From positions 178,659 to 242,658 of the forward strand of contig DATIBO010000006.1 of NCBI GenBank assembly GCA_035457485.1: a DNA stretch of 64,000 nt, read 5' to 3'. The notes below the pieces were generated by a model that saw only the letters and a program-made list of their open reading frames with translations, did no database searches and was not told where the DNA came from. Positions 2,925-53,711 of the stretch are shown here, one piece after another (within the stretch, counting starts at the first letter, position 1; the number at the start of each line of letters is the position of its first letter). Both the position numbers and the translations under genes were made by a program. The DNA comes from Candidatus Saccharimonadales bacterium. GTDB taxonomy: Bacteria > Patescibacteriota > Saccharimonadia > Saccharimonadales > EFPC-124.

Positions 2925-3376
2925 ACGAAGCACAAAATCGACCAAGCAAAAAACAACGCGAACTTTTAAGTTATATTGAGGCTTTTATAACTCAGCATGG
3001 CTACGGCCCGAGCTACCGCGAGGTTATGAATGCACTAAACTACAAATCGGTTTCGACAGTAGCTACCCATATAGACAATCTGATAACCAAAGGTCATTTA
3101 CGTAAGCGCGATAAATCAGCCCGGTCGCTAGAGGTCGTCCAAGGCACAAAAGAATTTAAACAAAAAACAGACGTAACCTACGCTCAGGAAAAGTGGTTAA
3201 TAGAACTTGTTAAAAAGAAGTTCTCAGTGGTCGAAAAAGAGCTGAGCCAGGCTTTGATCGATGACTTATACGTTTTAGTCGGGGCCTTACAAGTGATTGG
3301 CTTGGGTGACGCTGCGCGCAGTTTTAAGCCACGATTGGTTGAGCTAGCCCAAAAGGTTAAAGCTAGCTCAGAGTAA
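2921..3376 (+). CDS. LexA-type winged-helix DNA-binding protein lacking the S24 peptidase domain
   Basis: The N-terminus KKQRELLSYIEAFITQHGYGPSYREVMNALNYKSVSTVATHIDNLITKGHLRK...RSLEV matches the LexA DNA-binding domain pattern. The C-terminal 80 aa show no Ser/Lys peptidase motifs. ATGA overlap with gtrA-like. Confidence 0.6.
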   Translation: MNEAQNRPSKKQRELLSYIEAFITQHGYGPSYREVMNALNYKSVSTVATHIDNLITKGHLRKRDKSARSLEVVQGTKEFKQKTDVTYAQEKWLIELVKKKFSVVEKELSQALIDDLYVLVGALQVIGLGDAARSFKPRLVELAQKVKASSE

Positions 3377-3811
3377 GTTAGAAACATGAATTTGGTGTGG
3401 CTCTGCAATAAGCTTAGCAAAGTCTAGCGTGGCCAGCTTTTCAGGTAAAACAAACTCAGTTTTAGGATCAATAAAACTCGCTTGGCTGATTTCGATGTTT
3501 CCATGACTGGTGTTGTCCAGGTCTACTAATTCGTAATCGTCGGCATTTTTAATATAAAAGAAGAATTCTAAAAATTCCTTTTGTTCATCTTTATATTGTT
3601 GGATCATGATTAAGTGGCCAATTTGGGGTGTAATGCCTGTTTCCTCAATCATTTCGCGGTGCAAGCCCTCGGTTATTGATTCGCCAAATTCAAGTCCGCC
3701 TCCAGGGGTGCACCAGTAATCATGTTCGCCATCTGGGCTCTTAAGTTTTTGCGCGTAGATTTTACCGTTTTTAAAAATTATTCCTCGCACGTTAATTCTG
3801 CGTTGTTGCAT
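3368..3811 (-). CDS. NUDIX hydrolase
   Basis: Nudix box GGGLEFGESITEGLHREMIEETGI. Confidence 0.8.
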   Translation of the reverse strand: MQQRRINVRGIIFKNGKIYAQKLKSPDGEHDYWCTPGGGLEFGESITEGLHREMIEETGITPQIGHLIMIQQYKDEQKEFLEFFFYIKNADDYELVDLDNTSHGNIEISQASFIDPKTEFVLPEKLATLDFAKLIAEPHQIHVSNLL

Positions 3812-3939
3812 TTTAAAACTCCTTTAAGGTTAATAAAGGCGTTATTGGTTCGGTTCGTCCGAACATTTGCGCATAGAGGATCCTAGTGGATCTTAGTGAT
3901 ATTGATTTTAACAAAAAAAACAAAAAACAGTCCAAGTCG

Positions 3940-3967
3940 TTGACCTCTGTTTATAAGCTGATATAAT
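3940..3967 (+). promoter_or_regulatory. Sigma70-like promoter of tRNA-Asn
   Basis: TTGACC (3940-3945), 16-nt spacer, TATAAT (3962-3967). It lies 11 nt upstream of the mature tRNA 5' end. Confidence 0.55.
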
Positions 3968-3978
3968 ATTCAAAGTAT

Positions 3979-4053
3979 TCCGGGGTAGCGCAGCGGTAGC
4001 GCAGTTGACTGTTAATCAATTGGTCGCGGGTTCGAATCCCGCCCCCGGAGCCA
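3979..4053 (+). tRNA. tRNA-Asn (anticodon GTT)
   Basis: Manual cloverleaf: tccgggg/ta/gcgc-agcggta-gcgc/a/gttga-CTGTTAA-tcaat/tggtc/gcggg-ttcgaat-cccgc/ccccgga/g/cca. 75 nt with encoded CCA. Confidence 0.9.
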
Positions 4054-4099
4054 AGATAGAGAGCCATGCTGAAAAGCAGGGCTTTTTATCTGTAAATCG
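4048..4099 (+). repeat. Direct repeat copy 1 (last 6 nt of tRNA-Asn plus its terminator hairpin)
   Basis: gagccaagatagagagccatgcTGaaaagcaGggctttttatctgtaaatcg matches 6853-6904 at 49 of 52 positions. Confidence 0.9.
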
Positions 4100-4223
4100 T
4101 TGGTAGACTATGGCCGCTACAACAGCAAGAAGTTTAAGCTCGCGAAGGCTGGTTATGGTGCATTAAAGCAGTTGCCCAAAGCAGAGTCTGAGAAGGCCTG
4201 ACGGGCAAAGGATTACTTAATTT

Positions 4224-5027
4224 ATGCCCAAGCTAAAAAAGTCTGGTAAGTGTCATATCTGCGGCGAGGTTGGAACGCTCTCATACGAGCATGTCCCGCC
4301 CGCTAGTGCTTTCAACAACACAAAGACTCGGGTCTTTAAGGCTACGGAAATACTAGGCAGAAACGACAAGCTGTCGTGGGATATGGATGGCATCAAAGCT
4401 ATCGAGCAGCAGCGCGGTCGTGGCGGCTATACGCTGTGCGAGTCGTGCAACAACTTCACAGGACACGCATACGCCAAAGAGTATGTGCATATGGTACAGC
4501 TCGCTACTGACGGTAAGCATAGTCAATATATACATGATGGTGTCGGCATAGAAATAGCGCTAGACGCTGTTTACTCCCTACGGTTTGCCAAGCAGGTGCT
4601 AGCTATGTTTGCATCTACAAACCACGACAGTTTCTTTGACGCTTATCCAGAACTACGGAAGCTGGTGTTAGATAAAGAGGCTCGTGGAATTGATGAAAAC
4701 AAGTTCGCCCTGTACATGTACTACATGCTCGAAGGTCTCGGTAGAAACACGGGTATTGCGATATGGGGTGACTTTGCATTGGGCACAAGCTTTCGTGCTA
4801 GCGAGATGTCGGCACCACCTTTCGGGTTCGTACTCGAATTTAACCCGCAACGTGACAAGCACGGCATGTGGGGGGCTGAGATAACCTCCATGCTCAATGA
4901 GTTTGGTTATAACGACAAGACAAATATAGGTCTTCGGATGCCCAAGTTTGAGCAGAACACGCCGGTACCGTGCGACTTCAGAACCAAAGAGGAAATTGAA
5001 GGACGGTTTAATGAGGCTACTGCGTAA
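4224..5027 (+). CDS. HNH-like (CxxC...EHxxP...CxxCN) putative nuclease with an unknown C-terminal domain
   Basis: 267 aa. The N-terminus CHICGEVGTLSYEHVPPASAFN...CESCNNFTG resembles the two-CxxC beta-beta-alpha-Me finger of HNH_5-type proteins. The remainder is unassigned. Confidence 0.4.
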   Translation: MPKLKKSGKCHICGEVGTLSYEHVPPASAFNNTKTRVFKATEILGRNDKLSWDMDGIKAIEQQRGRGGYTLCESCNNFTGHAYAKEYVHMVQLATDGKHSQYIHDGVGIEIALDAVYSLRFAKQVLAMFASTNHDSFFDAYPELRKLVLDKEARGIDENKFALYMYYMLEGLGRNTGIAIWGDFALGTSFRASEMSAPPFGFVLEFNPQRDKHGMWGAEITSMLNEFGYNDKTNIGLRMPKFEQNTPVPCDFRTKEEIEGRFNEATA

Positions 5028-5544
5028 GGTCTTTCGAAACCTGTTAGGCATAAGCATGCGGAAACGCTACCCGCCTGATAAATATCCATTCTCGGAAGAC
5101 CTATACACATTCATGGAAAACTACCCGAAGTCAGAGGCCGCACTAAAGCTTAGTAGCCCCAATCGGTTCGTGACCATACCACTCATTTTTACCTCGTTTC
5201 TGCCTCAGAATCATGTGAAGTCGGCAGACGAAATAATTGGCATCTGGTACTACGATAAGGCTAAAGTCCGCTGCGGCTTTCACAAGAGAGTCTGTAACTT
5301 CAAACAGGACTTCATCGTGAACGTTGGAACACTCGGCAAAGAGTATGTCGTATACACGGCCGACAAGCAGTACCAACCCTACGTTCAGCCAATTAGTAAG
5401 TTCTTCAAGGATTACGGCAGCAACGGCAAGTTTTATCATGATGGCAATAGAGAATGGAACCATCACTATGAAACTTCCAAAGACTTGCCTAATGAACCTC
5501 GCCTAATTCAGCTTGCGAGTACAATAGAGGCTAATAACTCATGA
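5011..5544 (+). CDS. Hypothetical protein
   Basis: The track ORF is 4948..5544. I prefer ATG 5011 (or 5056), which shortens the overlap with the upstream gene to 17 nt. No recognisable motifs. Confidence 0.4.
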   Translation: MRLLRKVFRNLLGISMRKRYPPDKYPFSEDLYTFMENYPKSEAALKLSSPNRFVTIPLIFTSFLPQNHVKSADEIIGIWYYDKAKVRCGFHKRVCNFKQDFIVNVGTLGKEYVVYTADKQYQPYVQPISKFFKDYGSNGKFYHDGNREWNHHYETSKDLPNEPRLIQLASTIEANNS

Positions 5545-5885
5545 GACAATTACCGCTTCCCTCATCAGCTGCTAGCGCATCACTTATATCGACTCTCGCC
5601 GATCTGGTAACTATTGCAGGCGGTCTTCTGGCAATCGGTATAGCCATATGGCAGTTTCGCCTATATCGGCAGCTTGGCGACAACCAGAAGGCTATCGAGG
5701 CCAAGCAAGCTGAGATTGATGCCGTTCCAGACCGGCAGCTCGCCAAAGCTCAACAACATGGTATCGCGCAGCCAATCCTCGATAGGATGATCGTCACAGC
5801 TCAGGCCCCACTAAAGCATGAGCTTGAGCTACTTGAGCGAGACAGGAAGTTCATTAAAGACAAACTATTGTTTGCGAAGAAGTAA
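5541..5885 (+). CDS. Hypothetical membrane-anchored coiled-coil protein
   Basis: 114 aa with one TM helix (LVTIAGGLLAIGIAIW) followed by a charged helical region. ATGA overlap with the upstream ORF. Confidence 0.45.
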   Translation: MRQLPLPSSAASASLISTLADLVTIAGGLLAIGIAIWQFRLYRQLGDNQKAIEAKQAEIDAVPDRQLAKAQQHGIAQPILDRMIVTAQAPLKHELELLERDRKFIKDKLLFAKK

Positions 5886-6020
5886 CTATCAGTCAGTTAA
5901 TATATGAACAAACCAACCGCGAACATCGACAGACGTCGGATGCTCGATAAATAGCCATAAGTATCGATAACATATCTACTACAATTTGCAACGCACGTCT
6001 TGTGCAGTTATGCTAGTGGC

Positions 6021-6761
6021 ATGGCCAAGAGAAAGAAAAAAAGAGGCGATAGGCTACGGAGGGTGCTTAGTACGGTCTCACAGGGTTTTCGGTTTAGTCT
6101 AAAGTGGCGCTATCTATTGTGGGCTACGATCTGTGCCTTCGTTATTCTTGTGGTTGCTAACCGTGTTACACTTGCCCATTGGCTCGATGGCGTGGACTGG
6201 GTGTTAATAAAGGACTACCTCGCGGTAATAATCACGTGGCCGACTGCGATCTTAGTGCTGGGTTTAGTTTTCATGTATAGGTTTAGTGAGGCAATCCGTG
6301 TCTTTCTGAGCAAAATAGACCGATTAAAGGCTGTAGGGGTTGAATTAAGTCAACAGCAATCCGTGACACCGCCTACGCCCACCGACAGTAAGGAGCAAAA
6401 GACTGTTGAAGACTTGGAAAGTAAGGTTGATGACGGTAGTGTAACGCTCACGAAGCGGCAGGTAGATAATCTCGTTACTCTTCTTGAAACCATGGACTTC
6501 AGATTCCTTAACCTACATCTGGTGCAAAATACAAAAAACGCCTTGAGAGTGATGACACAGAGTGAGGTTAGAAAGAGTGCGTTTTTGCAAGTATATCAAG
6601 TGCCTCCACAACTTACAGACCCAGTTACAGAACGACAAGCGATACTCAATGCACTATTTGATGCTGGCCTAATTCACGAAGAAAGTGACATACTGAAAGC
6701 TACGGAAAAAGGGGTGCGCTTCCTGGCATTCATCGGAACACCCGTTCAACAAGCCAGATAA
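6021..6761 (+). CDS. Hypothetical membrane protein with a basic N-terminus and soluble C-terminal domain
   Basis: The track start at 6000 is TTG; the first ATG is 6021 (MAKRKKKRGD). 2-3 TM helices, then a roughly 140-aa soluble domain. Confidence 0.45.
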   Translation: MAKRKKKRGDRLRRVLSTVSQGFRFSLKWRYLLWATICAFVILVVANRVTLAHWLDGVDWVLIKDYLAVIITWPTAILVLGLVFMYRFSEAIRVFLSKIDRLKAVGVELSQQQSVTPPTPTDSKEQKTVEDLESKVDDGSVTLTKRQVDNLVTLLETMDFRFLNLHLVQNTKNALRVMTQSEVRKSAFLQVYQVPPQLTDPVTERQAILNALFDAGLIHEESDILKATEKGVRFLAFIGTPVQQAR

Positions 6762-6852
6762 CTTAGCCTCTTGCCATAACCCTGGTCGTATCACGTCTCA
6801 TATGCAAACACAGAGGATGAATAATCGCCCTTGATCACGGTTATAACTTCCT

Positions 6853-6904
6853 CTATCGTGGTGAGCCAAGATAGAGAGCCATGCCCAAAAGCATGGCTTT
6901 TTAT
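6853..6904 (+). repeat. Direct repeat copy 2 (tRNA-Asn 3' end plus terminator hairpin)
   Basis: gagccaagatagagagccatgcCCaaaagcaTggctttttatctgtaaatcg. The hairpin gccatgc/gcatggc is perfect here. The 3 differences from copy 1 all fall in the hairpin region: two in the loop next to the 5' arm and one in the 3' arm. Confidence 0.9.
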
Positions 6905-6988
6905 CTGTAAATCGCTCCTGGCCAAAGATGCCGAGCTTGACCGCCTGAAGACGGCGCAAGACCTGATGTTTGTCGTATAATTACATAC

Positions 6989-7315
6989 ATGGATACCGCA
7001 TTTCTTGAGCAGTACTATGAAAAAGTAATCCTTCCACTGTATAAAGATGACGCTATTAAAGTTGCTGTCTGGAAAGATCATGGGCAAGTTGGTCCAGATA
7101 GCTGGGCACACTACTTTGAAGATACTAATGGCACCGAGTACGTACTGCTGGCCGAAGACTACCCGAACGGCTCTTATTTGAACGATGACTTAAGCCATGA
7201 TGTAGTTCTAGTTCCAGATGGTGAAAGTGCGGCGGTAAAAGTTACGATCGATAATAAGTGGTTTCCGAATATTTCAGGGTATTTTACTCTGCTTAGAGAA
7301 CGAAGCCGCACTTAA
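6989..7315 (+). CDS. Hypothetical protein
   Basis: 108-aa acidic ORF with no motif recognised. Confidence 0.4.
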   Translation: MDTAFLEQYYEKVILPLYKDDAIKVAVWKDHGQVGPDSWAHYFEDTNGTEYVLLAEDYPNGSYLNDDLSHDVVLVPDGESAAVKVTIDNKWFPNISGYFTLLRERSRT

Positions 7316-7399
7316 TCGTAGTTATGACATGCTCTATTGTTGTGAGCATGAATCTATTAAATAGACCATTTCGTTCTCTTGGCATCAGTAGCAAGAGTG

Positions 7400-7894
7400 T
7401 CAGTCAATTAAGATCTTGGTGTTTGGTATTTTTGGCTGAATTTGGCTAATATCGAACTTTGATACGTTTGGGTTGCCACGCAGATCTAAGGTTTCAAGGT
7501 TTTTTAAATTACCTATTTCTAGCGGCAAGCCCGAGATGTTGTTGTTTGCGAAGTTAGCAATTCGTAGTTTGCTTAACTGGCCAATTTCGGCGGGAATGCC
7601 TGTCATTTTGTTATTTGCGGCGTTAAGAGTTTCAAGGTTAGTTAACTTTCGGATTTCTGCCGGCAAGGCGCCGGTCAAGTTATTGTTGCTTACATCTAAG
7701 CTAATAGCTGAATTATCGTCGAGTATATTTTTTGGAACCTCAACCAACCCTTTGCCAGAAAGATCTAGGGCACTATTAGAATTTTCGTTAACTGGCGTGG
7801 AAGGTTCTGAGTTTTTACCCAAGTTCTGTGTAAATAGTAAAGCACCCAGGGCTCCTATAACTACCACAAGCACAACTATAATAGCGTTCTTCAT
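7400..7894 (-). CDS. Membrane-anchored leucine-rich-repeat (LRR) protein
   Basis: N-terminal TM/signal anchor (IIVVLVVVIGALGALLF), then about five 23-24-aa repeats LxxLxxLxLxxNxLxGxIPxEIGxL. Confidence 0.75.
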   Translation of the reverse strand: MKNAIIVVLVVVIGALGALLFTQNLGKNSEPSTPVNENSNSALDLSGKGLVEVPKNILDDNSAISLDVSNNNLTGALPAEIRKLTNLETLNAANNKMTGIPAEIGQLSKLRIANFANNNISGLPLEIGNLKNLETLDLRGNPNVSKFDISQIQPKIPNTKILID

Positions 7895-7990
7895 CTTGGT
7901 ATTATACCAGTTAGCTCGATAATTATTGCATACTAGTAGTCCTGAGGGGTTGGTGGCGTGTGACAGTTAAGCAACGGAGTTAAACCAGGC

Positions 7991-8048
7991 TATTCAAAGT
8001 ATTCCGGGTAGCGCAGTTGACTGTTAATCAATTGGTCGCGGGTTCGAA
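7991..8048 (+). pseudogene. tRNA-Asn 5' fragment (pseudo-tRNA)
   Basis: tattcaaagtattccgggtagcgcagttgactgttaatcaattggtcgcgggttcgaa corresponds to 3967-4038 (12 nt of upstream flank plus the tRNA up to the T-loop). It has a 12-nt D-arm deletion and lacks the last 15 nt of the tRNA (T-stem 3' strand, acceptor 3' strand, discriminator, CCA) and the promoter. Confidence 0.85.
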
Positions 8049-8085
8049 ACGCTGGGTTTTTGTTTAGGGATGTTAAACTATTAAA

Positions 8086-10990: not shown

Positions 10991-11866
10991 TTATTCTAGA
11001 CTTTTTAAGATTTTGGCTATATCGTTCCTGTCTTTTAAAACTCCTTGCCACAGGTCACCAACTTTTTTGATCCGGGTAGGCATGTTTTTGATCGTGAACT
11101 GACTTGGTCTTAATCTAGGCGTAACCTCACTCCAGTCTAGGGGGGCGCTTACGCTAGCATCTTTAGTTGGTCGCGCACTATACGGTGCGGCTAAAGTTTG
11201 ACCGCGGCTATTCTGTAAGTAATCCAAATAGATCTTACCCTTGCGGTCTGACGGTGAGCGGACCAAACTTGTAAGTTTTGGAAGCTGTTTATTGACCTCG
11301 ATCCCGATTAAATGGATCAACTGGCGTCCTTGTGCATATGTGTATTTTGCGCCCAAAGGTACGTAAATGTGGATTCCAGATTTACCACTAGTTTTAGGAA
11401 AGGCCTTTACTTTCCAGTCGGTGCAAACTTTTTGCACAGCCTTCGCAACTTTTACTACCTCTTTAAAGTCATTGCCGTCTGGATCGAGATCCATTACGGC
11501 CCAGTCAGGTTTGTCGTCTGATTGAATGCGTGAATTCCATGGATTAATTTCGATGCAGCCAAGCTGCACCATGTAAATTAAAGTCTGCTCGTTGTTACAA
11601 ACAAGGTAGTTTACATTTTCATTAGTGCTTTCGCTATGGACTACAAAGTTTTTTGTAAAGTCCGGCAATGGGTGAGTGAAATTTTTCTGAAAAAATCCCT
11701 CACCATGAATTCCGTTTGGTTGGCGCAGTAGTGATTCTGGACGATCTTTTAAGTATTTCAAAATTGTTGGCGCAACAGCTTGGTAGTATTCTACTAAATC
11801 GCCTTTGGTGAAATTTAACTCTGGCCAAAAAATTTTATCTAAATTGGTAAGTTCTAGTTTGTCCAT
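10991..11866 (-). CDS. LigD polymerase/primase (Pol) domain protein, NHEJ
   Basis: 291 aa. LTNLDKIFWPE...KTSGKSGIHIYVPL...SVSAPLDW are typical of LigD Pol domains. Starts 2 nt after the stop of the ligase gene. Confidence 0.85.
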   Translation of the reverse strand: MDKLELTNLDKIFWPELNFTKGDLVEYYQAVAPTILKYLKDRPESLLRQPNGIHGEGFFQKNFTHPLPDFTKNFVVHSESTNENVNYLVCNNEQTLIYMVQLGCIEINPWNSRIQSDDKPDWAVMDLDPDGNDFKEVVKVAKAVQKVCTDWKVKAFPKTSGKSGIHIYVPLGAKYTYAQGRQLIHLIGIEVNKQLPKLTSLVRSPSDRKGKIYLDYLQNSRGQTLAAPYSARPTKDASVSAPLDWSEVTPRLRPSQFTIKNMPTRIKKVGDLWQGVLKDRNDIAKILKSLE

Positions 11867-11868
11867 TT

Positions 11869-13386
11869 TTACCCCTTTGGTTTTTCGCGGTGGACTTGAT
11901 TTGGTTTTTTATCATCACGCATACCTTCGAATGACGGGTGTCGCATTGTTCCTCCGGAGGTCCACTCTGCAAAACTAACCTCGCAAACTAGTCTTGGCTC
12001 GACCCAGTGGATTTTAGATTTCGCAACGGGCTCCGTGGTGAATGGCGAGTGTTTAATCTCAAGCTTTTTGAGTTGTTCGTAAAGCTTTTTTAAAACCGAT
12101 TGTTCAAACCCGCCGCCCGAACTACCAATATGAACGAATTTACCTTTTTCATAAACACCTAAAAGTAGGGCGCCAAAATATTCACGGCTGCCCATAGGTT
12201 CAGTGTAGCCGCCGATAACAGCTTCTTGTCGTAAGTGTGTTTTAATTTTTAACCAGTTACCCCCGCGGACATTTTGCTGATATTTACTGTTGATTTTTTT
12301 AGCTACAATGCCTTCAAGGTGTGATTTTTGGGCCTGCTTAAATAGTTGTTTACCTTGTTTTTCAATATGATCACTATAGCGAAGCACTGCACTGGCTTTT
12401 ATAGTTTTTTGCAGAATTTGTTTACGCTCAATTAAGGGTAAACTAGTTAAATCTTTGCCGTTTAGCCACAAAATATCAAAAGCATAGTAATAAAGCGTGC
12501 CTTCGCTTTTCGAGCTCCAGTTTTGCATCCATTCGAAGTGAGCGTGACCAGTTTTGTCAACTACAACGATTTCACCATCTAAGACAACGTCGTCTTTTAG
12601 GCTAAGAATCGCCTCTGTTATGCGAGTGTATTTTTGCGAAAAGTCGTTGCCGTTTCGTGAATAAAGTTCAATATGTGTTTTGTTTTTTGTTGCGATTGCT
12701 CGATAGCCATCCCACTTTATTTCAAAGATCCAGTCATCCCCGTCGAAGGGATCATCAACTAGCGTGCAAAGCATTGGTTTTACGTTTTTTGGCATAGATT
12801 TTTTGGGTGCATTTTTAGCCTGATCCCGCGCAAGTTGCTTTACGGTTTTGCCGCTAACTACAGATTCGTTTTTCTTCAAAATATCTTTGGTTGTTGCCTG
12901 GGTGTCGCCTTTTTTAACCATTAGCCATGCGTCATTGTCCTTGGAATTTTGAAGTTTTATTAGTGCAAATTCACCTTGCAGTTTTTGACCAAATAAATAA
13001 AAAGTTATATGGCCTTTTTTTAGGCCTTCCAACATTTCCTTTTCACCACCGTTGTTTAAAGGCTGGTATGTTCCGGAATCCCAAATAATAACTTCGCCTG
13101 CGCCATAGTTACCTTCGGGTATCACGCCTTCAAATTTACGATATTCAAACGGATGATCCTCAGTTATGACGGCTAAATGATGATCTCTCGGGTTCATGCT
13201 CGGTCCTTTTGGTATGGCCCAGCTTTTTAAAACCCCGTCAACCTCCAACCTAAAATCGTAATGATGTTGGCTAGCCTGGTGTTCTTGCACAACAAATTCT
13301 AGTTCTTTGCTACTTTTGCGCTCTGCACCTTTAGGTTCTGGGGTTTTATCAAAATTGCGTTTTGCGTGATATTTTTGCAGGCCCAT
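11869..13386 (-). CDS. ligD: DNA ligase D: 3'-phosphoesterase domain + ATP-dependent ligase domain
   Basis: PE domain (FVVQEHQASQHHYDFRLEVDGVLKSWAIPKGPS); ligase motif I (EIKWDGYRA). I prefer ATG 13386, preceded by GGGAG, over the track start at 13398. Confidence 0.85.
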   Translation of the reverse strand: MGLQKYHAKRNFDKTPEPKGAERKSSKELEFVVQEHQASQHHYDFRLEVDGVLKSWAIPKGPSMNPRDHHLAVITEDHPFEYRKFEGVIPEGNYGAGEVIIWDSGTYQPLNNGGEKEMLEGLKKGHITFYLFGQKLQGEFALIKLQNSKDNDAWLMVKKGDTQATTKDILKKNESVVSGKTVKQLARDQAKNAPKKSMPKNVKPMLCTLVDDPFDGDDWIFEIKWDGYRAIATKNKTHIELYSRNGNDFSQKYTRITEAILSLKDDVVLDGEIVVVDKTGHAHFEWMQNWSSKSEGTLYYYAFDILWLNGKDLTSLPLIERKQILQKTIKASAVLRYSDHIEKQGKQLFKQAQKSHLEGIVAKKINSKYQQNVRGGNWLKIKTHLRQEAVIGGYTEPMGSREYFGALLLGVYEKGKFVHIGSSGGGFEQSVLKKLYEQLKKLEIKHSPFTTEPVAKSKIHWVEPRLVCEVSFAEWTSGGTMRHPSFEGMRDDKKPNQVHREKPKG

Positions 13387-13422
13387 TCTTACTCCCAACA
13401 GATCGTATCAGACATAATTCAA

Positions 13423-23187: not shown

Positions 23188-23350
23188 GTTAGAATTAACT
23201 AGGAATTAATTAAAAACTAAATGCTTTTGTTTGGAAGTACGTGAAATTCGTACGCTGTGCCGCAACGGTAAGGTCAAGCCAAGCCCGATACAAACAAAAA
23301 GCTATATATCCCGAGCAGGAACCAAAAGTATTTTTGAATTACTTTAAATA

Positions 23351-46483: not shown

Positions 46484-46560
46484 GGCACCGTAGCTCAGAT
46501 GGTTAGAGCGTAGGACTCATAAGCCTAAGGTCACTGGTTCGATCCCAGTCGGTGCTACCA
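46484..46560 (+). tRNA. tRNA-Met (CAT), elongator-like
   Basis: ggcaccg/ta/gctc-agatggtta-gagc/g/tagga-CTCATAA-gccta/aggtc/actgg-ttcgatc-ccagt/cggtgct/a/cca, 77 nt. The T-arm region resembles E. coli elongator tRNA-Met. Confidence 0.85.
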
Positions 46561-48091
46561 AAATAGGATTTTTAGCGTCTTCGGACGCTATTTTCTTTAT
46601 TAACAGATAAGATTCTGCCAATTTAGCGGTTCTAAATCCCGTCTCACAATCGTATACAAGACCTTCTGGGAAGATTGCATCTTGAATACGCCTTTTGACC
46701 TCTATTGGTGCGAGGTTCCAAAATGATGCTGGATTGCTCATGAACAACAGAGCATTGTCTATTACTTGCTCCTTATCCTTGATATCGTCAGTAATCTCAG
46801 AGCGGCGTAATTCTATTTTGGTAATGTCGTTATCAACTTCTGCTAGTTTACGGTCTTTATCTGCTTCACTAATTTTGTTATCTATATACAAATCTAGTGT
46901 ACGAATACGTTTGTCCTGTAGGGCGTTTAGCTCACTGTCTAATGTACGCGAAAGGTTGTGTGCGTCTCGTGTTTCGTTATTCCATTCACGTAGCACGATA
47001 TGTTTAAACAGCTTCTGCGCGTCTTCTGTTGGTCGTACACGCTCCATTAAGTCCATGAAGTCCTGATGCACTAAGCCACGCATCTTGCTCACAGGCGCAC
47101 CAATTTCTTTAGCCCTACAAAACATGCAAGAATAGCGAGGACTCGGGCCACTGCGACCACGAGGAGAACTTCCAGTCATAGGTTTACCGCAGGTATGCTG
47201 CAGGAATCCGCTACGTAATGGCCATTCCTCTTCAGCAGAGCGGCTAAAGTTACGCAAGCTACCATTCAAGATTGCCTGATTACGGTAGTAAGTGGTCTCA
47301 CTAATGATGGGCTGGTGTATACCCTGAATTAGCCTGCCGCCTATATAGTCGGAAGTTACGAATCCAGCATAAAGTGGGTTACCTAACATGTCCTTTACCA
47401 TCTGCCATGTTCGCATGCCATTCTTTCGACTACGAATACCAATCTTGTACGCGAAATCACGAGCATTCTGTACCGTATAAGCACCCGTAGAAAACTCTTC
47501 TAGCAGCTGCTTCATCTTTGGGGCATCGTCATTAGGTTCGATAGTCACAATACCTGTTGCTGTCCTAATACGCCTGTAGCCAACGGGTGCAGCATGAGGC
47601 CAAGCCCCTTGCTCGAGACGAGCTATCATACCGCCCGTCGTACGAGCTAATCGAATCTCATTATCAAACTCCGCAAATGCTGCAAGCATACTTTCCATCA
47701 AGTTGCCCATAGGGTCATCACTGATAGGCTCGGTTACCGATACTACTTTGATTCCTAGCTTTTTCAGTTGTGCTTTGATGATATGGTGATATTCACTCTT
47801 ACGAGCTAACCTGTCCACCTTCCAGATAATGCAGTGAGATATTTTGCCTTTGTTTTTAGCACAGTAATCAAGCATCGCTGCTAGTTTTGGACGGTCTATG
47901 AGTTTCGCAGATACACCTTCTTCACGAAATACATTCTCATTAGGCAATTCAATGCCATTTGATTTAGCGTAACGCATACAGGCATCGGTTTGACTATCCA
48001 AACTGGTACCTTTTACTTGGTCATCACTCGATACTCGTACGTATGCAACTGCCTTCATAATTTCTTCGGTATTTTTAGAACTTTTACTCAT
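46517..48091 (-). CDS. Large serine recombinase (integrase)
   Basis: Resolvase catalytic N-terminus AVAYVRVSSDDQ, a recombinase domain, a Cys-containing zinc-ribbon-like segment (HTCGKPM...YSCMFCRAKE), and a coiled coil (LDSELNALQDKRIRTLDLYIDNKISEADKDRKLAEVDNDITKIE). The last 44 nt overlap tRNA-Met. Confidence 0.9.
   Translation of the reverse strand: MSKSSKNTEEIMKAVAYVRVSSDDQVKGTSLDSQTDACMRYAKSNGIELPNENVFREEGVSAKLIDRPKLAAMLDYCAKNKGKISHCIIWKVDRLARKSEYHHIIKAQLKKLGIKVVSVTEPISDDPMGNLMESMLAAFAEFDNEIRLARTTGGMIARLEQGAWPHAAPVGYRRIRTATGIVTIEPNDDAPKMKQLLEEFSTGAYTVQNARDFAYKIGIRSRKNGMRTWQMVKDMLGNPLYAGFVTSDYIGGRLIQGIHQPIISETTYYRNQAILNGSLRNFSRSAEEEWPLRSGFLQHTCGKPMTGSSPRGRSGPSPRYSCMFCRAKEIGAPVSKMRGLVHQDFMDLMERVRPTEDAQKLFKHIVLREWNNETRDAHNLSRTLDSELNALQDKRIRTLDLYIDNKISEADKDRKLAEVDNDITKIELRRSEITDDIKDKEQVIDNALLFMSNPASFWNLAPIEVKRRIQDAIFPEGLVYDCETGFRTAKLAESYLLIKKIASEDAKNPILVAPTGIEPVTLGL
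46573..46598 (+). terminator. tRNA-Met intrinsic terminator (UUCG-loop hairpin)
   Basis: tagcgtc-ttcg-gacgcta followed by tttt. It lies inside the recombinase ORF on the opposite strand. Confidence 0.65.
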
Positions 48092-48295
48092 CTAATTATA
48101 CCTCGTTTGCGTAACTTTTAGAACCTCAAATTGTGACACATTCCTGAGGAAAGCTCTTGCAATGGCCGTAAAATCTAGAACCGCCACTGCCAGCGATTCG
48201 CCGGAGCTATACTGCGATGTTTTACCGATTACTTTCTTGGCTTCATCTACTGATATAGGCGTAAGTTCGCTTACGGAATCAAGACTAAACTCCAT
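48092..48295 (-). CDS. Small hypothetical protein immediately upstream of the recombinase (candidate accessory/directionality factor)
   Basis: I prefer ATG 48295 (MEFSLDSVSE..., 67 aa), preceded by AAGGAG with a 7-nt spacer, over the track start at 48343. Its stop abuts the recombinase start. Confidence 0.4.
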   Translation of the reverse strand: MEFSLDSVSELTPISVDEAKKVIGKTSQYSSGESLAVAVLDFTAIARAFLRNVSQFEVLKVTQTRYN

Positions 48296-48422
48296 TACTT
48301 TGCTCCTTATCCCGCTTGTGAAAGATACCAGTTGTACCCTCATATTCCCGCATGGTTTTGAAGATAGCTTCTAACAGTTCTGCGAGTGTTATACGCTCAT
48401 CTTCTGGTTGTTGGTTGGTCAT
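48285..48422 (-). CDS. Unannotated 45-aa ORF
   Basis: AAGGAG, a 7-nt spacer, then ATG at 48422. MTNQQPEDERITLAELLEAIFKTMREYEGTTGIFHKRDKEQSNGV. Its stop overlaps the next start. Confidence 0.35.
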   Translation of the reverse strand: MTNQQPEDERITLAELLEAIFKTMREYEGTTGIFHKRDKEQSNGV

Positions 48423-48750
48423 TCTTAACTCCTTTAGACCGCACCAAACTGACACCTGCATATTGAGGCGTGCTGCATGGTTGATATTAAATATTTCGGA
48501 ATAGCAAACCCCACAAACGAGACGCTAGAACTCGCTGAAAATAAAAAATGCCCGATTCGAGGCTTGTTACCTGAAGGGCTAATTGTGAGTATAGACTTGA
48601 CCGAGTTGGTCTACGAAGTTGCTTCGTTTACTATGTGAGTATTATACCAAACCATAAGCAAAAAGTCAATAGCTACAGTAACACTTATGACCTCTGGTAA
48701 AAATGTGTTGTAATTTATGACAAGATACATGCAGACTACCATGCAATATA

Positions 48751-49638
48751 ATGATTTACAGAGTGACTGATTTATTCAATAACAGAGAGATTGCGGTAGG
48801 GCTATGGCTGATGGTACTGATAGTCTTTGCTGCTAGTAAAAAGGAAGTACGTTCATCATTTAAGGACGTTCTTAAAGCATTCTTCACGCCTAAAATAATC
48901 ATACCGTTATTACTGTCATTCACGCCAAGCGTATTGGTCGTATGGCTATTGGCATATTTAAATCTTTGGGACTTGTCTGTACTCAAAGAAACAATCTATT
49001 GCGTTATCGGTACAGGCATCATTATGTTTGGTAAGTTCAATAGCGTTAAAGATTTGAAGTCACTATACAGGCAAACCGCAAAAGAAACCCTAGCATTAGT
49101 GGTCTTGCTGGAGTTCATTATTTGGCTTTATGTATTTCCTTTGTGGGTTGAGCTGCTACTGGTGCCGTTCGTAACTTTGGTAGTGCTGTTAGCGACAGTG
49201 GCAAAGTACATGAAAACGGACGGTATAGAGTTAACGCGCAAAGTGCTAAATGGTACGCAAGTATTTATTGGCCTGCTTATACTGCTATTCGCATTTATAG
49301 GCTTTGCGAAAAGTCCTGCAACATTATTTACCCTGCAGAATCTAGAGCTGTTTTTGCTGCCTATTATCCTTTCATTAACCTTCGTACCTTCCGTGTACTT
49401 CATAGCGTTGTATAGCAAGTATGAATTGGTATTCAATCGAATTAACTACCCCATGAAACTGAACCGTAAAAGCAAGCGGGCTATCAAACTAGCAGCTATC
49501 AGGCGCTGCGGCCTGAGCGTGTATGTTACAGGCGAAATGATACGTCATTTGGCAATCAACTTAACCACTGACACCACCAAGGCTCAAGCCCTAAAGCTCA
49601 TAAAAACCTTTGACCCAAAGCAACCATCATTCTTATAG
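48751..49638 (+). CDS. Orphan polytopic membrane protein (about 7 TM) with a basic soluble C-terminal tail
   Basis: 295 aa with no recognisable motif. Confidence 0.55.
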   Translation: MIYRVTDLFNNREIAVGLWLMVLIVFAASKKEVRSSFKDVLKAFFTPKIIIPLLLSFTPSVLVVWLLAYLNLWDLSVLKETIYCVIGTGIIMFGKFNSVKDLKSLYRQTAKETLALVVLLEFIIWLYVFPLWVELLLVPFVTLVVLLATVAKYMKTDGIELTRKVLNGTQVFIGLLILLFAFIGFAKSPATLFTLQNLELFLLPIILSLTFVPSVYFIALYSKYELVFNRINYPMKLNRKSKRAIKLAAIRRCGLSVYVTGEMIRHLAINLTTDTTKAQALKLIKTFDPKQPSFL

Positions 49639-49657
49639 CCCGACTTTACCAGAATCG

Positions 49658-49691
49658 CCTCTGAGCCTGATTCAAATTAGGTGTTTTTATT
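49658..49691 (+). terminator. Intrinsic terminator, copy 1 of a repeated cassette
   Basis: cctctgagcctgattcaaattaggtgtttttatt. Stem gcctga/ttaggt (with G-U pairs) plus a T-run. Confidence 0.55.
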
Positions 49692-49764
49692 TCTCGGATG
49701 AGTTACACCTCAATCAAACAGATTTATTGTATAATTTACTCTAGAAATACTTGCGTAATTTCCT

Positions 49765-52700
49765 ATGACAAAAATACCAGTATCTATTAGCCAATTAGCA
49801 AAATACGGACTTGATTACGTAAGCCTGATTTCAAGTAGTGCCTCCAGAAGCCGACCCGTTAAGACTGAGCAGATGGATGCTGATTTACTTTCTATTCCAG
49901 ACTTGATTTTTAAAAGTGAAGTTGACTCCATAACGATTGATTTAGTCACGGCTCTGGATAAACAGTTTGACCCGAGTATACCGAACGAGGAAAAGAGCGA
50001 TGAGCAACGACAAGCTGAATGGCGTGTTGAACGGGACAGGGGTATCTTAAATAAGATTCAAGAAATAGACACAAAGATTAGAACCGATGAGTATACGAAA
50101 CGAGTAGTTTTACAAACTGGCTTTATCTCATTTGAGGCAAAACGTTACCTTGAGTCTGATTTTAATGAAGAGTATGAGATATACGATGCTCCGTTGTTTC
50201 AGGTTCCAGTAGCGGCTATAAACTTCAAATATACCCCTGAGGGCGTAACAGTAATTATCGACCTACCCGATAACTATGTAGAGATTCTAAACGGCCCACT
50301 AAAGAACTTCTTGCCTCAGCAGTATTTTGATAAAGTGTTCAAGTTTATAGCGGATTCAGAAGCGGAAGAGAAAACCATGCTTCCTCTTGCCGATGATTTT
50401 ATTCAAGAGTTGTGGTCAGTAATCAGAGTTCAGTTAGATGGATTAGATGCTAAGTCGATATCTGAAGCCCCTAGTTTTGCAACTAGCATTGTCGCCATTA
50501 CCAATAAGACAAACCACTTTCTTGCCGAAGACCTAAAGGCTATCGCTGCACTAGAAGATGAAGAGTTGCTAGAAACGTCGTTAGGTGGTTGGGTGTCTGA
50601 TGAAGATATGGCGATTGAACAGGCGGTTTCTGATGATGGCAGTACAGAGATATTCTTTCCGTTTGATTATGACAAGTATCAGCTAAAAGTTTTAGGTATC
50701 ACTGCAAATAAAGCAGTTATTGTAGAAGGTCCTCCAGGAACTGGAAAATCACAAACAATCTCAAACCTACTCGTGCATCTTGCAGCCACGGGCAAGCGGG
50801 TATTATTTGCGAGTCAAAAAGACCAAGCAATACGTGGAGTCAAAGATAAGCTAAAGACATTGGACGTGCCGTTTTTATATGGCTATATTCCAGACAAAAC
50901 ATCCAAGCTATACACAGAAGATGATGAAAAAGACAGTGCGGCAAATACACTCCTAGCTCTTAATAGAGAGTTCCAGAAAGGAAAAGTTGGCGACTTAAAA
51001 GAGCCTCTAGCGTTGCTTGCTAACCGTTCGAATATTTTTGTAGAGAACCTGAATAATGAACGTTCTATCTACGCCCTATTAGAAGAACGTAGAAGCTTGA
51101 GCTACCTTGACTCTTTTCATCCGTACGAAATTGACAGCGGGTGGTATAGCCAATGTGGTTTATTGGAAGATACCATTAGCGGGCTGGAAGCTAGTGTTAA
51201 CAAATACGAAAAGACTCACGAGAAGTTTTTAAGGGCAGCAAACAAAAAGTTTGAAAATCTAGAATTGGATTATCAGGCGACTATAGACTCAATTGAAAAC
51301 ATCTACTCATACTTTAAGGAAAATATGCCTGAGCGGGCTGGTTGGATAGGTGGCAAAGTTAATGAAATGAAATTGCGTAATGCCCTGAAAGAACATGGCC
51401 GTACCCTTTTGCAAGAGATTTACGTAGAAGTCGAAAAGATACTATTCTCTGATAATACGAAGTCTGCTCGATTGCAGTTACTTGATAGTCTGTCGGATTA
51501 CTTTGTTTATGGTAGCGAGTTACAAGCAATATCAGAAAGTCGCTCTTCGCTTAACGAATTACTATCGAGTAAAGAAATATCACCGACCACATATACCGCT
51601 CTCAAAAAGGTAATCTCTGAGAATAGCAAGGAAAAGGTATTTAACGACCTAACTAGGTATAACGAAATTACCGAACAGATAGAAGAAATGTCTTTGTATT
51701 CAGCGAATGAACTTAATCGAGAAATCAAAGATATTCGCAAGTTTTACAGAACCAATATCACAAACTATGTGCGCAATCGTATCCTGACTAGAATTGGTGA
51801 AGCGAATAATAGCAAAGATGTACGAGCTACTTTAGCTCAGGTAGCTAGAAGTCTTACAAAGAGCAAGAAAGCTAATAAAACATTCGATAGATTGAAGCAC
51901 AATGAAGACAACTTCAGCGCCATGTCTAAGGTCTTGCCAATCTGGATGATGAGTCTAGACGATGTTAGTCGTATAGTGCCTCTAGAGAAGAATGCCTTTG
52001 ATTATGTAATTATCGACGAAGCGTCACAGTGTAATTTTGCCTATGCGTTTCCAGCCATGTTCCGTGCCGAACATACAATTTTCTTTGGCGATACTTTGCA
52101 GATGCGTGACGACAACATTATGTTTAAGTCGAACGACCAACTCAATGCCATTGCTAAGAAGCATAAGATACCCGAGGTTTATCAAATTAAGGCCGAGGAA
52201 GACACCGTAAAATCTGTAATGGATATTGCTCATCTAAACGGCTTTATGACCACAACGCTCAAGTACCATTACCGTTCACCAAAAGAACTTATAGGGTTCT
52301 CGAACGAGTCCTTCTACGAGCCAATCGGTAGGAAGTTAGAGGCAGTGAACGACAATATAGTTCCGTATAAAGATACTGGACGTGTCCTCCTTACTCACAT
52401 TGTGAAGCCAGATGACGGCGAAGAAACATCTGATAAAACTAACTTCGCCGAGATACGCAAGATTCAAGAACTGGTAGACGAGATTAAGAATGACCCCGTT
52501 CTAAAAGATAAGTCCATCGCTATCTTGACCTTCTTTAACGAGCAGGCCGAGCTGATTCGAAACGCTATAAAAGACGACGATATCAAAGTGTCTATTATTG
52601 ACGGCATTCAAGGTGACGAGCGTGATATCGTAATTTATTCATTTGTTATTAAAGACCCTAGCGATAAAAAGCGTTATATCGCTCTAACTGGTGAAGGCGG

Positions 52701-53646
52701 CGAGATTCGCAAAGACATTGCTGCTGGTCGTGTTAACGTTGCGTTTAGCCGAGCCAGGTTACAGGTTCATACTGTTACATCATTAGCCCCTGAACTATGG
52801 CCAGAGGGTATTTGGATTAAGCGGTATCTGGAGTATGTCGAAACTAGCGGTATAGTTAACCGTCGTCATAGTAAGTCAGAGCAACAGTTTGACTCTAACT
52901 TTGAAGAAAAGATATTTAGCTATTTGGCGAAAGAGCTGGATGCTAGTGAGTACACCCTAGAAACTCAAGTTGAGTCTCTCGGATTTAAGATTGATTTAGT
53001 AGTTTGTCGTAACGGCAAGAAGCTAGCTATTGAGATGGATGGCCCTTCCCACTTTGAAGGTGGAGATGGCCAGGTATATGTAAAGGATGACTGGGACAGG
53101 CAGGGTGCTCTTGAAACAGCTGGATGGAACTTTTACCGTATCTCATACTTTGATTGGACGAAAGACCAAGAAGTTGAGCAAAAAGCACTTAGCGAATACA
53201 TACAACAGTACTTTGCAGATAAGAGCACCTCGAGCAAAACGACTGTATTGAAAGAGCTTGAAAAAGAAACGGTTGCTCCAGAAGAAGCTCCTAAGGATAT
53301 GTATGTAACTGACTTTTCAGATGAGCACGTGGATAATGTTAGTCCCGTTCAAGCTGCTCATGTGACTAGTAATGTGAAGCGTACTGACACCGCCAAGACT
53401 ACACCCGCTAAACCAACATTCTCAATAGGAGACCGTGAGGTTAATCAGGAGGATTTTGAAAGATATCTTAGCAGCCGTCAGCAGAGTTATATTGAGATAC
53501 GATACCAATCTATGCGTGCTGGGTCGGCGAAATATTGGAGAACAATACGTCTTGATGGTTACGATGGCACGTACATGTATTCCAAGCAGGATAACGCACC
53601 TTACCCGATTAAATATCGTCGTGACCGAGTAATAGAGTTCAGATAA
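49765..53646 (+). CDS. DUF4011-like N-terminal region + Upf1/DNA2-type SF1B helicase + Vsr/DUF559-like endonuclease module + WYL-like C-terminal domain
   Basis: 1293 aa. YDAPLFQVPV (N-terminal); Walker A VEGPPGTGKSQT (about nt 50728); Walker B VIIDEASQC (about nt 52010); QGDERDIVIYS; GRVNVAFSRAR; then FEEKIFSYL...GFKIDLVV...KLAIEMDGPSHF; tail IEIRYQS...YWRTIRLDG...TYMYS...PIKYRRDRVIEF. Confidence 0.85.
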   Translation: MTKIPVSISQLAKYGLDYVSLISSSASRSRPVKTEQMDADLLSIPDLIFKSEVDSITIDLVTALDKQFDPSIPNEEKSDEQRQAEWRVERDRGILNKIQEIDTKIRTDEYTKRVVLQTGFISFEAKRYLESDFNEEYEIYDAPLFQVPVAAINFKYTPEGVTVIIDLPDNYVEILNGPLKNFLPQQYFDKVFKFIADSEAEEKTMLPLADDFIQELWSVIRVQLDGLDAKSISEAPSFATSIVAITNKTNHFLAEDLKAIAALEDEELLETSLGGWVSDEDMAIEQAVSDDGSTEIFFPFDYDKYQLKVLGITANKAVIVEGPPGTGKSQTISNLLVHLAATGKRVLFASQKDQAIRGVKDKLKTLDVPFLYGYIPDKTSKLYTEDDEKDSAANTLLALNREFQKGKVGDLKEPLALLANRSNIFVENLNNERSIYALLEERRSLSYLDSFHPYEIDSGWYSQCGLLEDTISGLEASVNKYEKTHEKFLRAANKKFENLELDYQATIDSIENIYSYFKENMPERAGWIGGKVNEMKLRNALKEHGRTLLQEIYVEVEKILFSDNTKSARLQLLDSLSDYFVYGSELQAISESRSSLNELLSSKEISPTTYTALKKVISENSKEKVFNDLTRYNEITEQIEEMSLYSANELNREIKDIRKFYRTNITNYVRNRILTRIGEANNSKDVRATLAQVARSLTKSKKANKTFDRLKHNEDNFSAMSKVLPIWMMSLDDVSRIVPLEKNAFDYVIIDEASQCNFAYAFPAMFRAEHTIFFGDTLQMRDDNIMFKSNDQLNAIAKKHKIPEVYQIKAEEDTVKSVMDIAHLNGFMTTTLKYHYRSPKELIGFSNESFYEPIGRKLEAVNDNIVPYKDTGRVLLTHIVKPDDGEETSDKTNFAEIRKIQELVDEIKNDPVLKDKSIAILTFFNEQAELIRNAIKDDDIKVSIIDGIQGDERDIVIYSFVIKDPSDKKRYIALTGEGGEIRKDIAAGRVNVAFSRARLQVHTVTSLAPELWPEGIWIKRYLEYVETSGIVNRRHSKSEQQFDSNFEEKIFSYLAKELDASEYTLETQVESLGFKIDLVVCRNGKKLAIEMDGPSHFEGGDGQVYVKDDWDRQGALETAGWNFYRISYFDWTKDQEVEQKALSEYIQQYFADKSTSSKTTVLKELEKETVAPEEAPKDMYVTDFSDEHVDNVSPVQAAHVTSNVKRTDTAKTTPAKPTFSIGDREVNQEDFERYLSSRQQSYIEIRYQSMRAGSAKYWRTIRLDGYDGTYMYSKQDNAPYPIKYRRDRVIEFR

Positions 53647-53677
53647 CAAGATTTAAAGGTCAAGTTTCCTTAAATCA

Positions 53678-53711
53678 CCCCTGAGCCTAAATCAAATTAG
53701 GCATTTTTATT
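53678..53711 (+). terminator. Intrinsic terminator, copy 2 of the repeated cassette
   Basis: cccctgagcctaaatcaaattaggcatttttatt. Stem gcctaa/ttaggc plus a T-run. Confidence 0.6.

Follow-up and report, generated by a model that had tools for sequence, protein, structure and literature searches.

What was inserted behind the tRNA-Asn gene of this Saccharibacteria (TM7) genome, and which kind of recombinase put it there? The question arises from a stretch of 64,000 nt of a Candidatus Saccharimonadales bacterium (positions 178,659 to 242,658 of contig DATIBO010000006.1, assembly GCA_035457485.1), hereafter the window, in which an intact tRNA-Asn gene is followed by two copies of a 52-nt direct repeat (DR1 and DR2) and by a truncated piece of the same tRNA. 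We propose that this locus is most probably the remnant, now devoid of a recombinase, of integrative islands moved by the Saccharibacteria tRNA-Asn family of large serine recombinases (LSR), and that two such elements stood there in tandem.

The intact tRNA-Asn(GTT) gene (3979-4053, plus strand) was recognized by ARAGORN and by Rfam (74 bits), and is preceded by its own promoter-like TTGACC, 16 nt, TATAAT arrangement (3940-3967, plus strand, 11 of 12 matches), as stated by the first-pass annotation, which was made from the sequence alone. The same annotation had correctly delimited DR1 (4048-4099) and counted 49 identities out of 52 between the copies; it misplaced DR2, which lies at 6863-6914 and not at 6853-6904. 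Only the last 6 nt of the tRNA enter the repeat, the remainder being a terminator. Both copies fold as 16-bp hairpins (z-scores of -4.7 for DR1 and -5.0 for DR2), with two of the three substitutions in the loop beside the 5' arm and one in the 3' arm, again in agreement with the earlier description. According to 100 shuffles, no chance match is expected for the 52-nt repeat, nor for the repeat of the tRNA. No other copy of the direct repeat exists in the window or in IMG/VR, and no exact 22-mer of it was found in the Joint Genome Institute (JGI) metagenomes, the copies in other genomes being reached only through protein-guided loci. The DNA enclosed by the repeats (4100-6862) has a GC content of 0.471, compared with 0.431 window-wide, which places it in the top 3% of windows of the same size. 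The tRNA-Asn pseudogene fragment (7991-8048, plus strand) is made of two blocks at 100% identity with the intact locus (3967-3984 = 7991-8008 and 3995-4036 = 8007-8048). It thus contains 12 nt of leader and tRNA positions 1-58, with a D arm short by 12 nt, and has neither promoter, 3' end nor tRNA fold (folding z-score +1.1, no Rfam match). Its extent, flank and D-arm gap had been properly described; the missing 3' part of the 75-nt gene amounts to 17 nt (4037-4053), not 15.

A 30-nt tRNA-Asn pattern matches 33 species-representative genomes, mostly metagenome-assembled genomes of Saccharibacteria/Patescibacteria, and the corresponding GTDB-representative loci (L005-L037) were fetched by this exact pattern. 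The tRNA-Asn sequence of the window is identical in 25 of them; in L015 the identity over 3940-4053 reaches 95.6%, and the gene order Wzy-GtrA-LexA_DBD-tRNA-Asn is kept in L015, L019, L020, L033 and L017. Since both the tRNA promoter and the gene order on the left are conserved in other Saccharibacteria, the left, intact tRNA-Asn is the native gene. The DNA downstream of it is different in every species compared, and none of the 33 loci has the flanks of the window or the direct repeat.

The nature of the inserted DNA is revealed by an intact relative, L038, a 10.8-kb island lying directly downstream of a tRNA-Asn whose sequence differs from that of the window. There, the tRNA 3' end GAGCCAA is followed by a 46-nt sequence, hereafter the P' arm (94-96% identical to DR1 and DR2 over the 52-nt repeat), a convergent gene encoding a 545-aa LSR with Resolvase, Recombinase and Zn_ribbon_recom domains, and six genes, the last two of which encode a SHOCT-domain protein and a Hypoth_Ymh protein. 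Next come three genes for proteins of 267, 177 and 114 aa that are also present in the window, such that window 4103-5884 corresponds to L038 9881-11661 with 92% nucleotide identity. Beyond the 114-aa gene, L038 carries genes for a Cap4-type nuclease and a 563-aa protein, then GGTTATAACTTCCTCTATCGTTGT-GAGCCAA, a P arm that is 90% identical to window 6830-6869. After this GAGCCAA stands a strong terminator unrelated to the direct repeat, which is the host's own, and the sequence duplicated at the two ends of the island is GAGCCAA only. Four more intact elements (L056, L061, L065 and L136) possess the same P arm followed by host-specific terminators, and in all five the block shared by the left and right attachment sites (attL and attR) is 7-15 nt long. 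In the window, the P arm GGTTATAACTTCCTCTATCGTGGT kept at the right end of these five elements is found at 6839-6862 (plus strand), immediately upstream of DR2.

These comparisons reveal the architecture of the attachment sites. In the chromosomal site attB, the 3' part of the tRNA (B arm) is followed by the core GAGCCA(A) and then by the terminator of the host (B' arm); in the element site attP, the same core stands between the P arm GGTTATAACTTCCTCTATCGTGGT and the P' arm, with the LSR gene just inside P' and convergent with the tRNA. Integration, through a crossover presumably located at the core, gives an attL made of the tRNA and P', and an attR made of P and the displaced host terminator. 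The P' arm of type 1 accompanies the LSR over at least five different tRNA-Asn sequence types and is therefore element-borne. In L038, the direct-repeat sequence is the element's own P' arm, which re-supplies the tRNA end together with a replacement terminator, the host terminator being displaced to the far end. The early view of site-specific elements at tRNA-Asn is thus retained, but not that of the repeat as a duplicated att core, the five intact relatives sharing no more than the 7-15 nt mentioned above. As a consistency check only, we compared the two half-sites: an outer GGTT motif is separated from the core by 24 nt in the P arm versus 19 nt in the T arm of the tRNA, with a motif match of only 6/9. 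Structural work on the integrase of the Listeria phage A118 reportedly revealed a 5-nt offset between the attP and attB half-sites of LSRs, and the offset seen here is suggestive in that it agrees with this spacing.

The association with tRNA-Asn extends to the whole recombinase family. Cluster relatives of the L038 LSR number more than 120 at 72-100% identity, and 2329 with a threshold of E<1e-30, and the predicted C-termini of the more than 120 clusters all correspond to the reverse translation of the tRNA-Asn 3' end, from which it follows that these LSRs sit convergent on tRNA-Asn with an att site overlapping the end of their reading frame. A scan of the JGI metagenomes for LSR relatives provided 80 loci (L054-L133). 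At 69% identity or more, all 14 loci with a visible flank have tRNA-Asn or a tRNA-Asn-derived sequence at the LSR 3' end, tRNA-Asn genes split by a group I intron included. Relatives at 33-47% identity are convergent on tRNA-Glu (12 loci) and on the tRNAs for Ser, Tyr, Asp, Gln, Ala, Thr, His, Leu, Gly and Arg. Overall, a tRNA adjoins the LSR in 41 of the 80 loci, the contig end being too near the LSR 3' end in many of the others. Each LSR clade thus appears, from these sequences, to have its own tRNA target, with sister clades on at least 11 other tRNA types, in contigs that we assume to be mostly from Patescibacteria. Among the 33 GTDB-representative loci, an LSR follows tRNA-Asn in L028, L035 and L010. 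We found no description of this tRNA-directed LSR family in a searchable literature that is incomplete, so that this is absence of evidence only.

The overlap between frame and att site is directly readable: the LSR frame passes through the P' arm into the tRNA (L038 3619-3720; window 6791-7111, minus strand), so that the att site supplies the last ~28 codons. The integrated and circular forms would as a result encode proteins with different tails, and the LSR tail "...SLSWLRGLDSNQRP" is conserved only because it is the tRNA read backwards. A separate observation concerns the tRNA-Asn genes themselves, some of which are interrupted in the anticodon loop by a group I intron (RF00028, 70-101 bits; L063 1501-1746, L072 853-1150, L127 1631-1859 and L055 18122-18299) and were missed by ARAGORN. 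The LSR-adjacent tRNA-Asn 3' halves of L063 and L072, initially considered as attP arms, were rejected as such, being parts of these intron-split genes.

When this architecture is applied to the window, DR1 and its extension (4048-4104, plus strand) form an attL, composed of the core GAGCCA(A) and an element-borne P' arm, the homology with the P' arm of L038 reaching 4104. DR2 (6863-6914, plus strand) consists of the core and a second P' arm, and follows the P arm; segment 6839-6914 is thereby P-core-P', which we read as an attP-type joint between tandem elements and not as an attR. A P'-like sequence after the P arm was seen only in the window and in L011. An attP-type joint inside a chromosome implies that two related elements were once in tandem, and we infer that E1 (4105-6862), the more recent of the two, most likely entered the attL that the older one had formed next to the tRNA, both LSR genes being deleted later. 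The deletion in E1 can be delineated by comparison with L038, as the homology jumps from P' (window 4104) into the Ymh gene (window 4103 = L038 9881) with a short microhomology at the joint. It runs from 5 nt past P' into Ymh, the equivalent of 6.2 kb of L038, and took the LSR, five further genes and most of Ymh, breaking the pair formed by Ymh and the 267-aa gene. What is left of Ymh is a 3' remnant of its last 32 codons (4103-4198, plus strand; Hypoth_Ymh, TIGR02391; 97% amino acid identity to residues 331-362 of the L038 protein). DR2 is likewise followed by an open reading frame (ORF) tail of 66 nt that is GC-rich (0.51) and ends with TAA (6915-6980, plus strand), for which no homologue was found. 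By analogy with the Ymh remnant after DR1, this tail is probably what is left, at the 3' end, of a cargo gene that belonged to the second element. The earlier conclusion of at least two successive events followed by loss of the recombinase is in line with this scenario, the LSR being kept in L038; the tRNA fragment, which had been attributed to one of these insertion or recombination events, falls outside the att logic.

Several points weigh against this interpretation. There is no recombinase gene in 4054-8048, so that activity at the locus itself is only presumed. No close relative of the host was found in databases (the best homologue of the neighbouring Dabb protein is 49% identical, and synteny is lost there), hence neither the empty site nor the native terminator of the host lineage could be seen. 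Region 6915-7990 matched none of the fetched loci, whether as DNA or as protein, and has a host-like GC content (0.42); the case for a second element is thus limited to the junction and to the short ORF tail of high GC content. Accretion through integration into attL is an assumption, and to our knowledge the model LSRs of phiC31 and Bxb1 do not use attL as a target. The P-core-P' joint could also have arisen by homologous recombination with an incoming circle or by integration of a dimer. Finally, a 5' tRNA fragment with upstream flank at the far end of an island has no parallel in ~130 related loci.

The best surviving alternative is a single integration, in which DR2 would be a plain attR, the host's own tRNA-Asn terminator would happen to be nearly identical to P', for example because the attP of the element was captured from the host lineage, and 6915-7990 would be host DNA. 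The GC content of the latter and its lack of homologue in any element fit this scheme, as do the 3 differences out of 52 between the direct repeats, which two independent sequences might well show. In L136, whose tRNA-Asn is identical to that of the window, B' and P' even share their first 9 nt, AGATAGAAC. Yet past the first 1-9 nt, B' bears no relation to P' in any of the five resolved elements, and the occurrence of P' type 1 with the LSR over at least five tRNA-Asn types marks it as belonging to the element. Moreover, a sequence resembling the 3' half of a native terminator stands instead at 8049-8068, and the GC-rich 66 nt after DR2 resemble a truncated ORF tail. We therefore consider a single integration improbable and retain two tandem elements as the better explanation.

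This leaves the 5' tRNA fragment, which is not a product of the LSR, since the att logic of these enzymes gives 3' fragments of 7-25 nt and never 5' ones. In the ~130 related loci, 5' halves outside an annotated tRNA-Asn gene occur only in the intron-split genes of L063 and L127. Directly after the fragment lies ACGCTGGGTTTTTGTTTAGG (8049-8068, plus strand). Since the native tRNA-Asn terminators of relatives end in ...TTTTTGTTTGG, it resembles the 3' half of such a terminator and could be a B' remnant. We thus tentatively envision the fragment as a second, promoterless copy of tRNA-Asn beside the remnant of the native terminator, cut by two small deletions. The duplicated leader and tRNA segment would bracket the whole inserted block, and the second copy would then have lost 12 nt of its D arm as well as ~17 nt and half of the terminator. 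It might have been brought by a circular DNA carrying a copy of tRNA-Asn through single-crossover recombination, generated in situ by tandem duplication followed by a large deletion, or have arisen from templated patching at a break repaired by end joining. Genes for LigD, with primase-polymerase and ligase parts (window 10991-13398), and for Ku (L002 5405-6163) are present in the genome and make up a non-homologous end-joining system that could be relevant both to the deletions and to the junction of the tRNA fragment.

Such an unusual arrangement could in principle be artificial, and an assembly artefact had been named at the outset as what would refute it. Another possibility is a chromosome with its ends joined (A-R-C) accompanied by a free 4-kb circle, which would look alike in a de Bruijn graph. 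In the independent Logan assembly of SRR25158331, the locus is distributed over three contigs, all breaks falling within the two copies of the 42-nt exact tRNA repeat; the middle one (4030 nt) starts and ends inside this repeat, which speaks for these possibilities. However, the three novel junctions (from the preceding sequence, X, to the leader; the D-arm deletion; and from the T loop to ACGCTGGG) are all present as k-mers in that assembly, DR2 lies inside one unbroken contig, and the 889-kb source contig was assembled through the site. In addition, the tRNA-Asn of an A-R-C chromosome would be truncated at its 3' end and that of the circle deleted in its D arm, so that no functional tRNA-Asn would be visible. 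An artefact or a free circle is thus very improbable. Less credible still is a classical tRNA island in which a tyrosine integrase would have used the 52 bp as its att core, and in which the 5' fragment would be the att site of a second tyrosine-integrase element directed at the T loop. Islands of this kind usually target tRNA 3' ends, and the fragment stops precisely within the T loop (GGTTCGAA), reportedly a common crossover sublocation of these enzymes. However, no tyrosine integrase gene or remnant exists in the locus (Pfam, NCBIfam, PHROGs), the intact homologues encode an LSR and show a duplication of just 7-15 nt, and integration in the T loop would leave at the far end a 3' fragment, absent from the entire 64-kb window, instead of a 5' one with its leader.

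The cargo of E1 had been described as orphan genes, which its relatives contradict. The first complete ORF after the Ymh remnant (4224-5027, plus strand) encodes a 267-aa protein with 26 relatives, the closest of which (95% identity) is in L038. It displays a CxxC...EHVPP...CxxCN motif that is HNH-like by eye only; it belongs to no curated family, its sole PHROG match being marginal (E 0.009). Its AlphaFold model is of high confidence (pLDDT 91, pTM 0.90), and a Foldseek comparison with the PDB gave no match at E<=0.001. The next ORF (177 aa, 5011-5544, plus strand) co-occurs with it and shares 92% amino acid identity with its counterpart in L038 and 78% with that in L049, and the third one (114 aa, 5541-5885, plus strand) is 87% identical to that of L038. 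The 267-177-114 block thus recurs in L038, and the 267-177 pair also in L049. The fourth ORF (246 aa, 6021-6761, plus strand) occupies the position held in L038 by the Cap4-nuclease and 563-aa genes; it has 295 related cluster representatives, without any named family, and a hydrophobic stretch seen by eye near its N-terminus makes a membrane protein possible. The Ymh and 267-aa genes form a recurrent pair, which in L134 neighbours a type II restriction-modification system; the L048 homologue of the 267-aa gene belongs to an island that also contains Abi_C and type I restriction-modification genes. Based on such neighbours only (restriction-modification systems, Abi_C, Cap4 nuclease), this pair may constitute an undescribed two-gene defence module, probably inactive in the window owing to the truncation of Ymh. 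No match was obtained with PADLOC for any of the six ORFs of the locus. A phage origin of the elements was considered and dropped, as there are no phage genes, no PHROG function for the cargo and no relative of the LSR in the viral contigs of IMG/VR.

The remainder of the locus, between the ORF tail and the tRNA fragment, contains a 108-aa ORF without family (6989-7315, plus strand) and a gene for a 164-aa leucine-rich-repeat (LRR) protein (7400-7894, minus strand), with a host-like GC content of 0.41 and an N-terminus that is hydrophobic by eye. A 34-nt direct similarity (82%) links 7570-7603, in the LRR gene, to 3607-3640, in a NUDIX gene (3368-3811), with TGI.P.IG.L in both proteins; it was discarded as a meaningful repeat, being most likely due to chance. 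Upstream of the NUDIX gene, between it and the tRNA-Asn promoter, stands an Rfam MDR-NUDIX RNA motif (3839-3897, minus strand, 68.8 bits for a gathering score of 54.9). Farther away, a cobalamin riboswitch is matched at 23210-23313 with 32.3 bits, the gathering score being 31.5.

The window possesses a single LSR gene, at another tRNA. A tRNA-Met(CAT) gene (46484-46560) is followed by a terminator hairpin and by a convergent gene for a 524-aa LSR (46517-48091, minus strand), the frame of which enters the tRNA. The cargo of this island (46484-53711) includes a gene for a 1293-aa protein combining an SF1 helicase and an MTES_1575 nuclease (49765-53646). Its right border was not found by a suffix search. 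A 59-nt direct repeat with terminator-like ends (49633-49691 and 53653-53711, 75% identical) brackets the helicase-nuclease gene. We also considered whether this LSR might act in trans on the tRNA-Asn sites, which is unlikely given its 26% identity with the tRNA-Asn LSR and its different target.

Accretion at tRNA-Asn is not restricted to the window. In L011, three integrase-less modules follow the tRNA-Asn, bounded by P-arm junctions, one of which is then followed by a P'-like hairpin. In L055, an LSR element has as its tRNA-proximal boundary a 25-nt tRNA 3' fragment with core and P', 6.4 kb downstream of the real tRNA. Host terminators (B') vary widely among sites used by LSRs that are 72-87% identical, and the enzyme therefore probably reads mainly the tRNA side. 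Such a reading would let an occupied site (tRNA and P') be hit again, with the newest element nearest to the tRNA. Streptococcal elements are reported to accrete by integrating into the attL or attR of a resident element (PMC5357655). If the tRNA-Asn LSRs accepted nearly any sequence on the side away from the tRNA, one could imagine the tRNA-Asn 3' end of Saccharibacteria as an open-ended docking platform where defence cassettes stack newest-first, lose their recombinases and stay movable in trans, sister LSR clades doing likewise at tRNA-Glu, Ser, Thr, Met and others across Patescibacteria; we regard this generalization as speculative and, at present, rather doubtful. Another sequence was noticed at the same place, a conserved non-coding module of ~150-170 nt (...GGTTCGATAGC...GCGACGACG[AT]TA...) present in L011 (4458-4645) and, after the terminator, in L015 and L056. 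It stands between a tRNA-Asn-type terminator and a repeated 12-21-nt tRNA-Asn 3' end, and might represent either a mini-element of another type or a small RNA that exploits this site.

Three known systems invite comparison. In staphylococci, the Ccr large serine recombinases of the staphylococcal cassette chromosome mec (SCCmec) integrate at the 3' end of rlmH/orfX. As here, SCCmec and pseudo-SCC elements have an LSR acting at the extreme 3' end of a housekeeping gene that is kept intact, and SCC arrays are generally described as tandem stacks between repeated integration sites, with recombinase-less units and decayed remnants. The differences are the tRNA target, the element-borne replacement terminator, a single LSR in place of CcrA/CcrB and the Saccharibacteria hosts; there is no sequence relationship beyond the LSR domains, the Ccr proteins themselves not having been compared. 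The tRNA islands of tyrosine integrases and the cis-mobilizable elements (CIMEs) of streptococci also target tRNA 3' ends, restore the gene with their own sequence and give rise to att-bounded units devoid of integrase. CIMEs and accretions followed by deletions are reported for streptococci (PMC5357655; Pavlovic 2004 as cited there). The segment between the attL at 4048-4104 and the P-core-P' at 6839-6914 is bounded as a CIME would be, with no recombinase or transfer gene in between; this 2.8-kb unit was not seen in other contexts among the loci compared. In contrast to tyrosine-integrase islands, the enzyme here is a serine recombinase, and the identity block is 7-15 nt at the tRNA end and does not begin at the anticodon or T loop. 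The serine integrases of streptococcal integrative mobilizable elements, for their part, almost all insert inside protein genes and disrupt them (PMC5357655). Finally, the large serine integrases of phages and integrative conjugative elements (phiC31, Bxb1, A118/LI, TP901-1) have the same set of Resolvase, Recombinase and zinc ribbon domains, and their att sites, like ours, are short, differ in sequence and have only a small core in common; an attP half-site 5 nt longer than the attB one may be a further resemblance. They differ from the present family by their targets, a tRNA with an att site overlapping the end of the LSR frame being used here, and by the absence here of phage genes and of IMG/VR matches, together with a defence-like cargo. 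The locus itself appears to be an ordinary decayed member; it is the targeting of tRNAs, the replacement of the terminator and the specificity for Saccharibacteria and related lineages that set the family apart from SCC-type islands.

The locus is thus a dead remnant, whose value lies in pointing to a large and tightly conserved family of tRNA-Asn LSRs, the attP and attB of which can be read from sequence. Patescibacteria are hard to manipulate genetically, and a native LSR with an attP of 50-90 bp and a universal chromosomal attB would make an integration tool for them. Arrays at tRNA-Asn would also illustrate how defence genes enter and leave such reduced genomes at a single, constant position.

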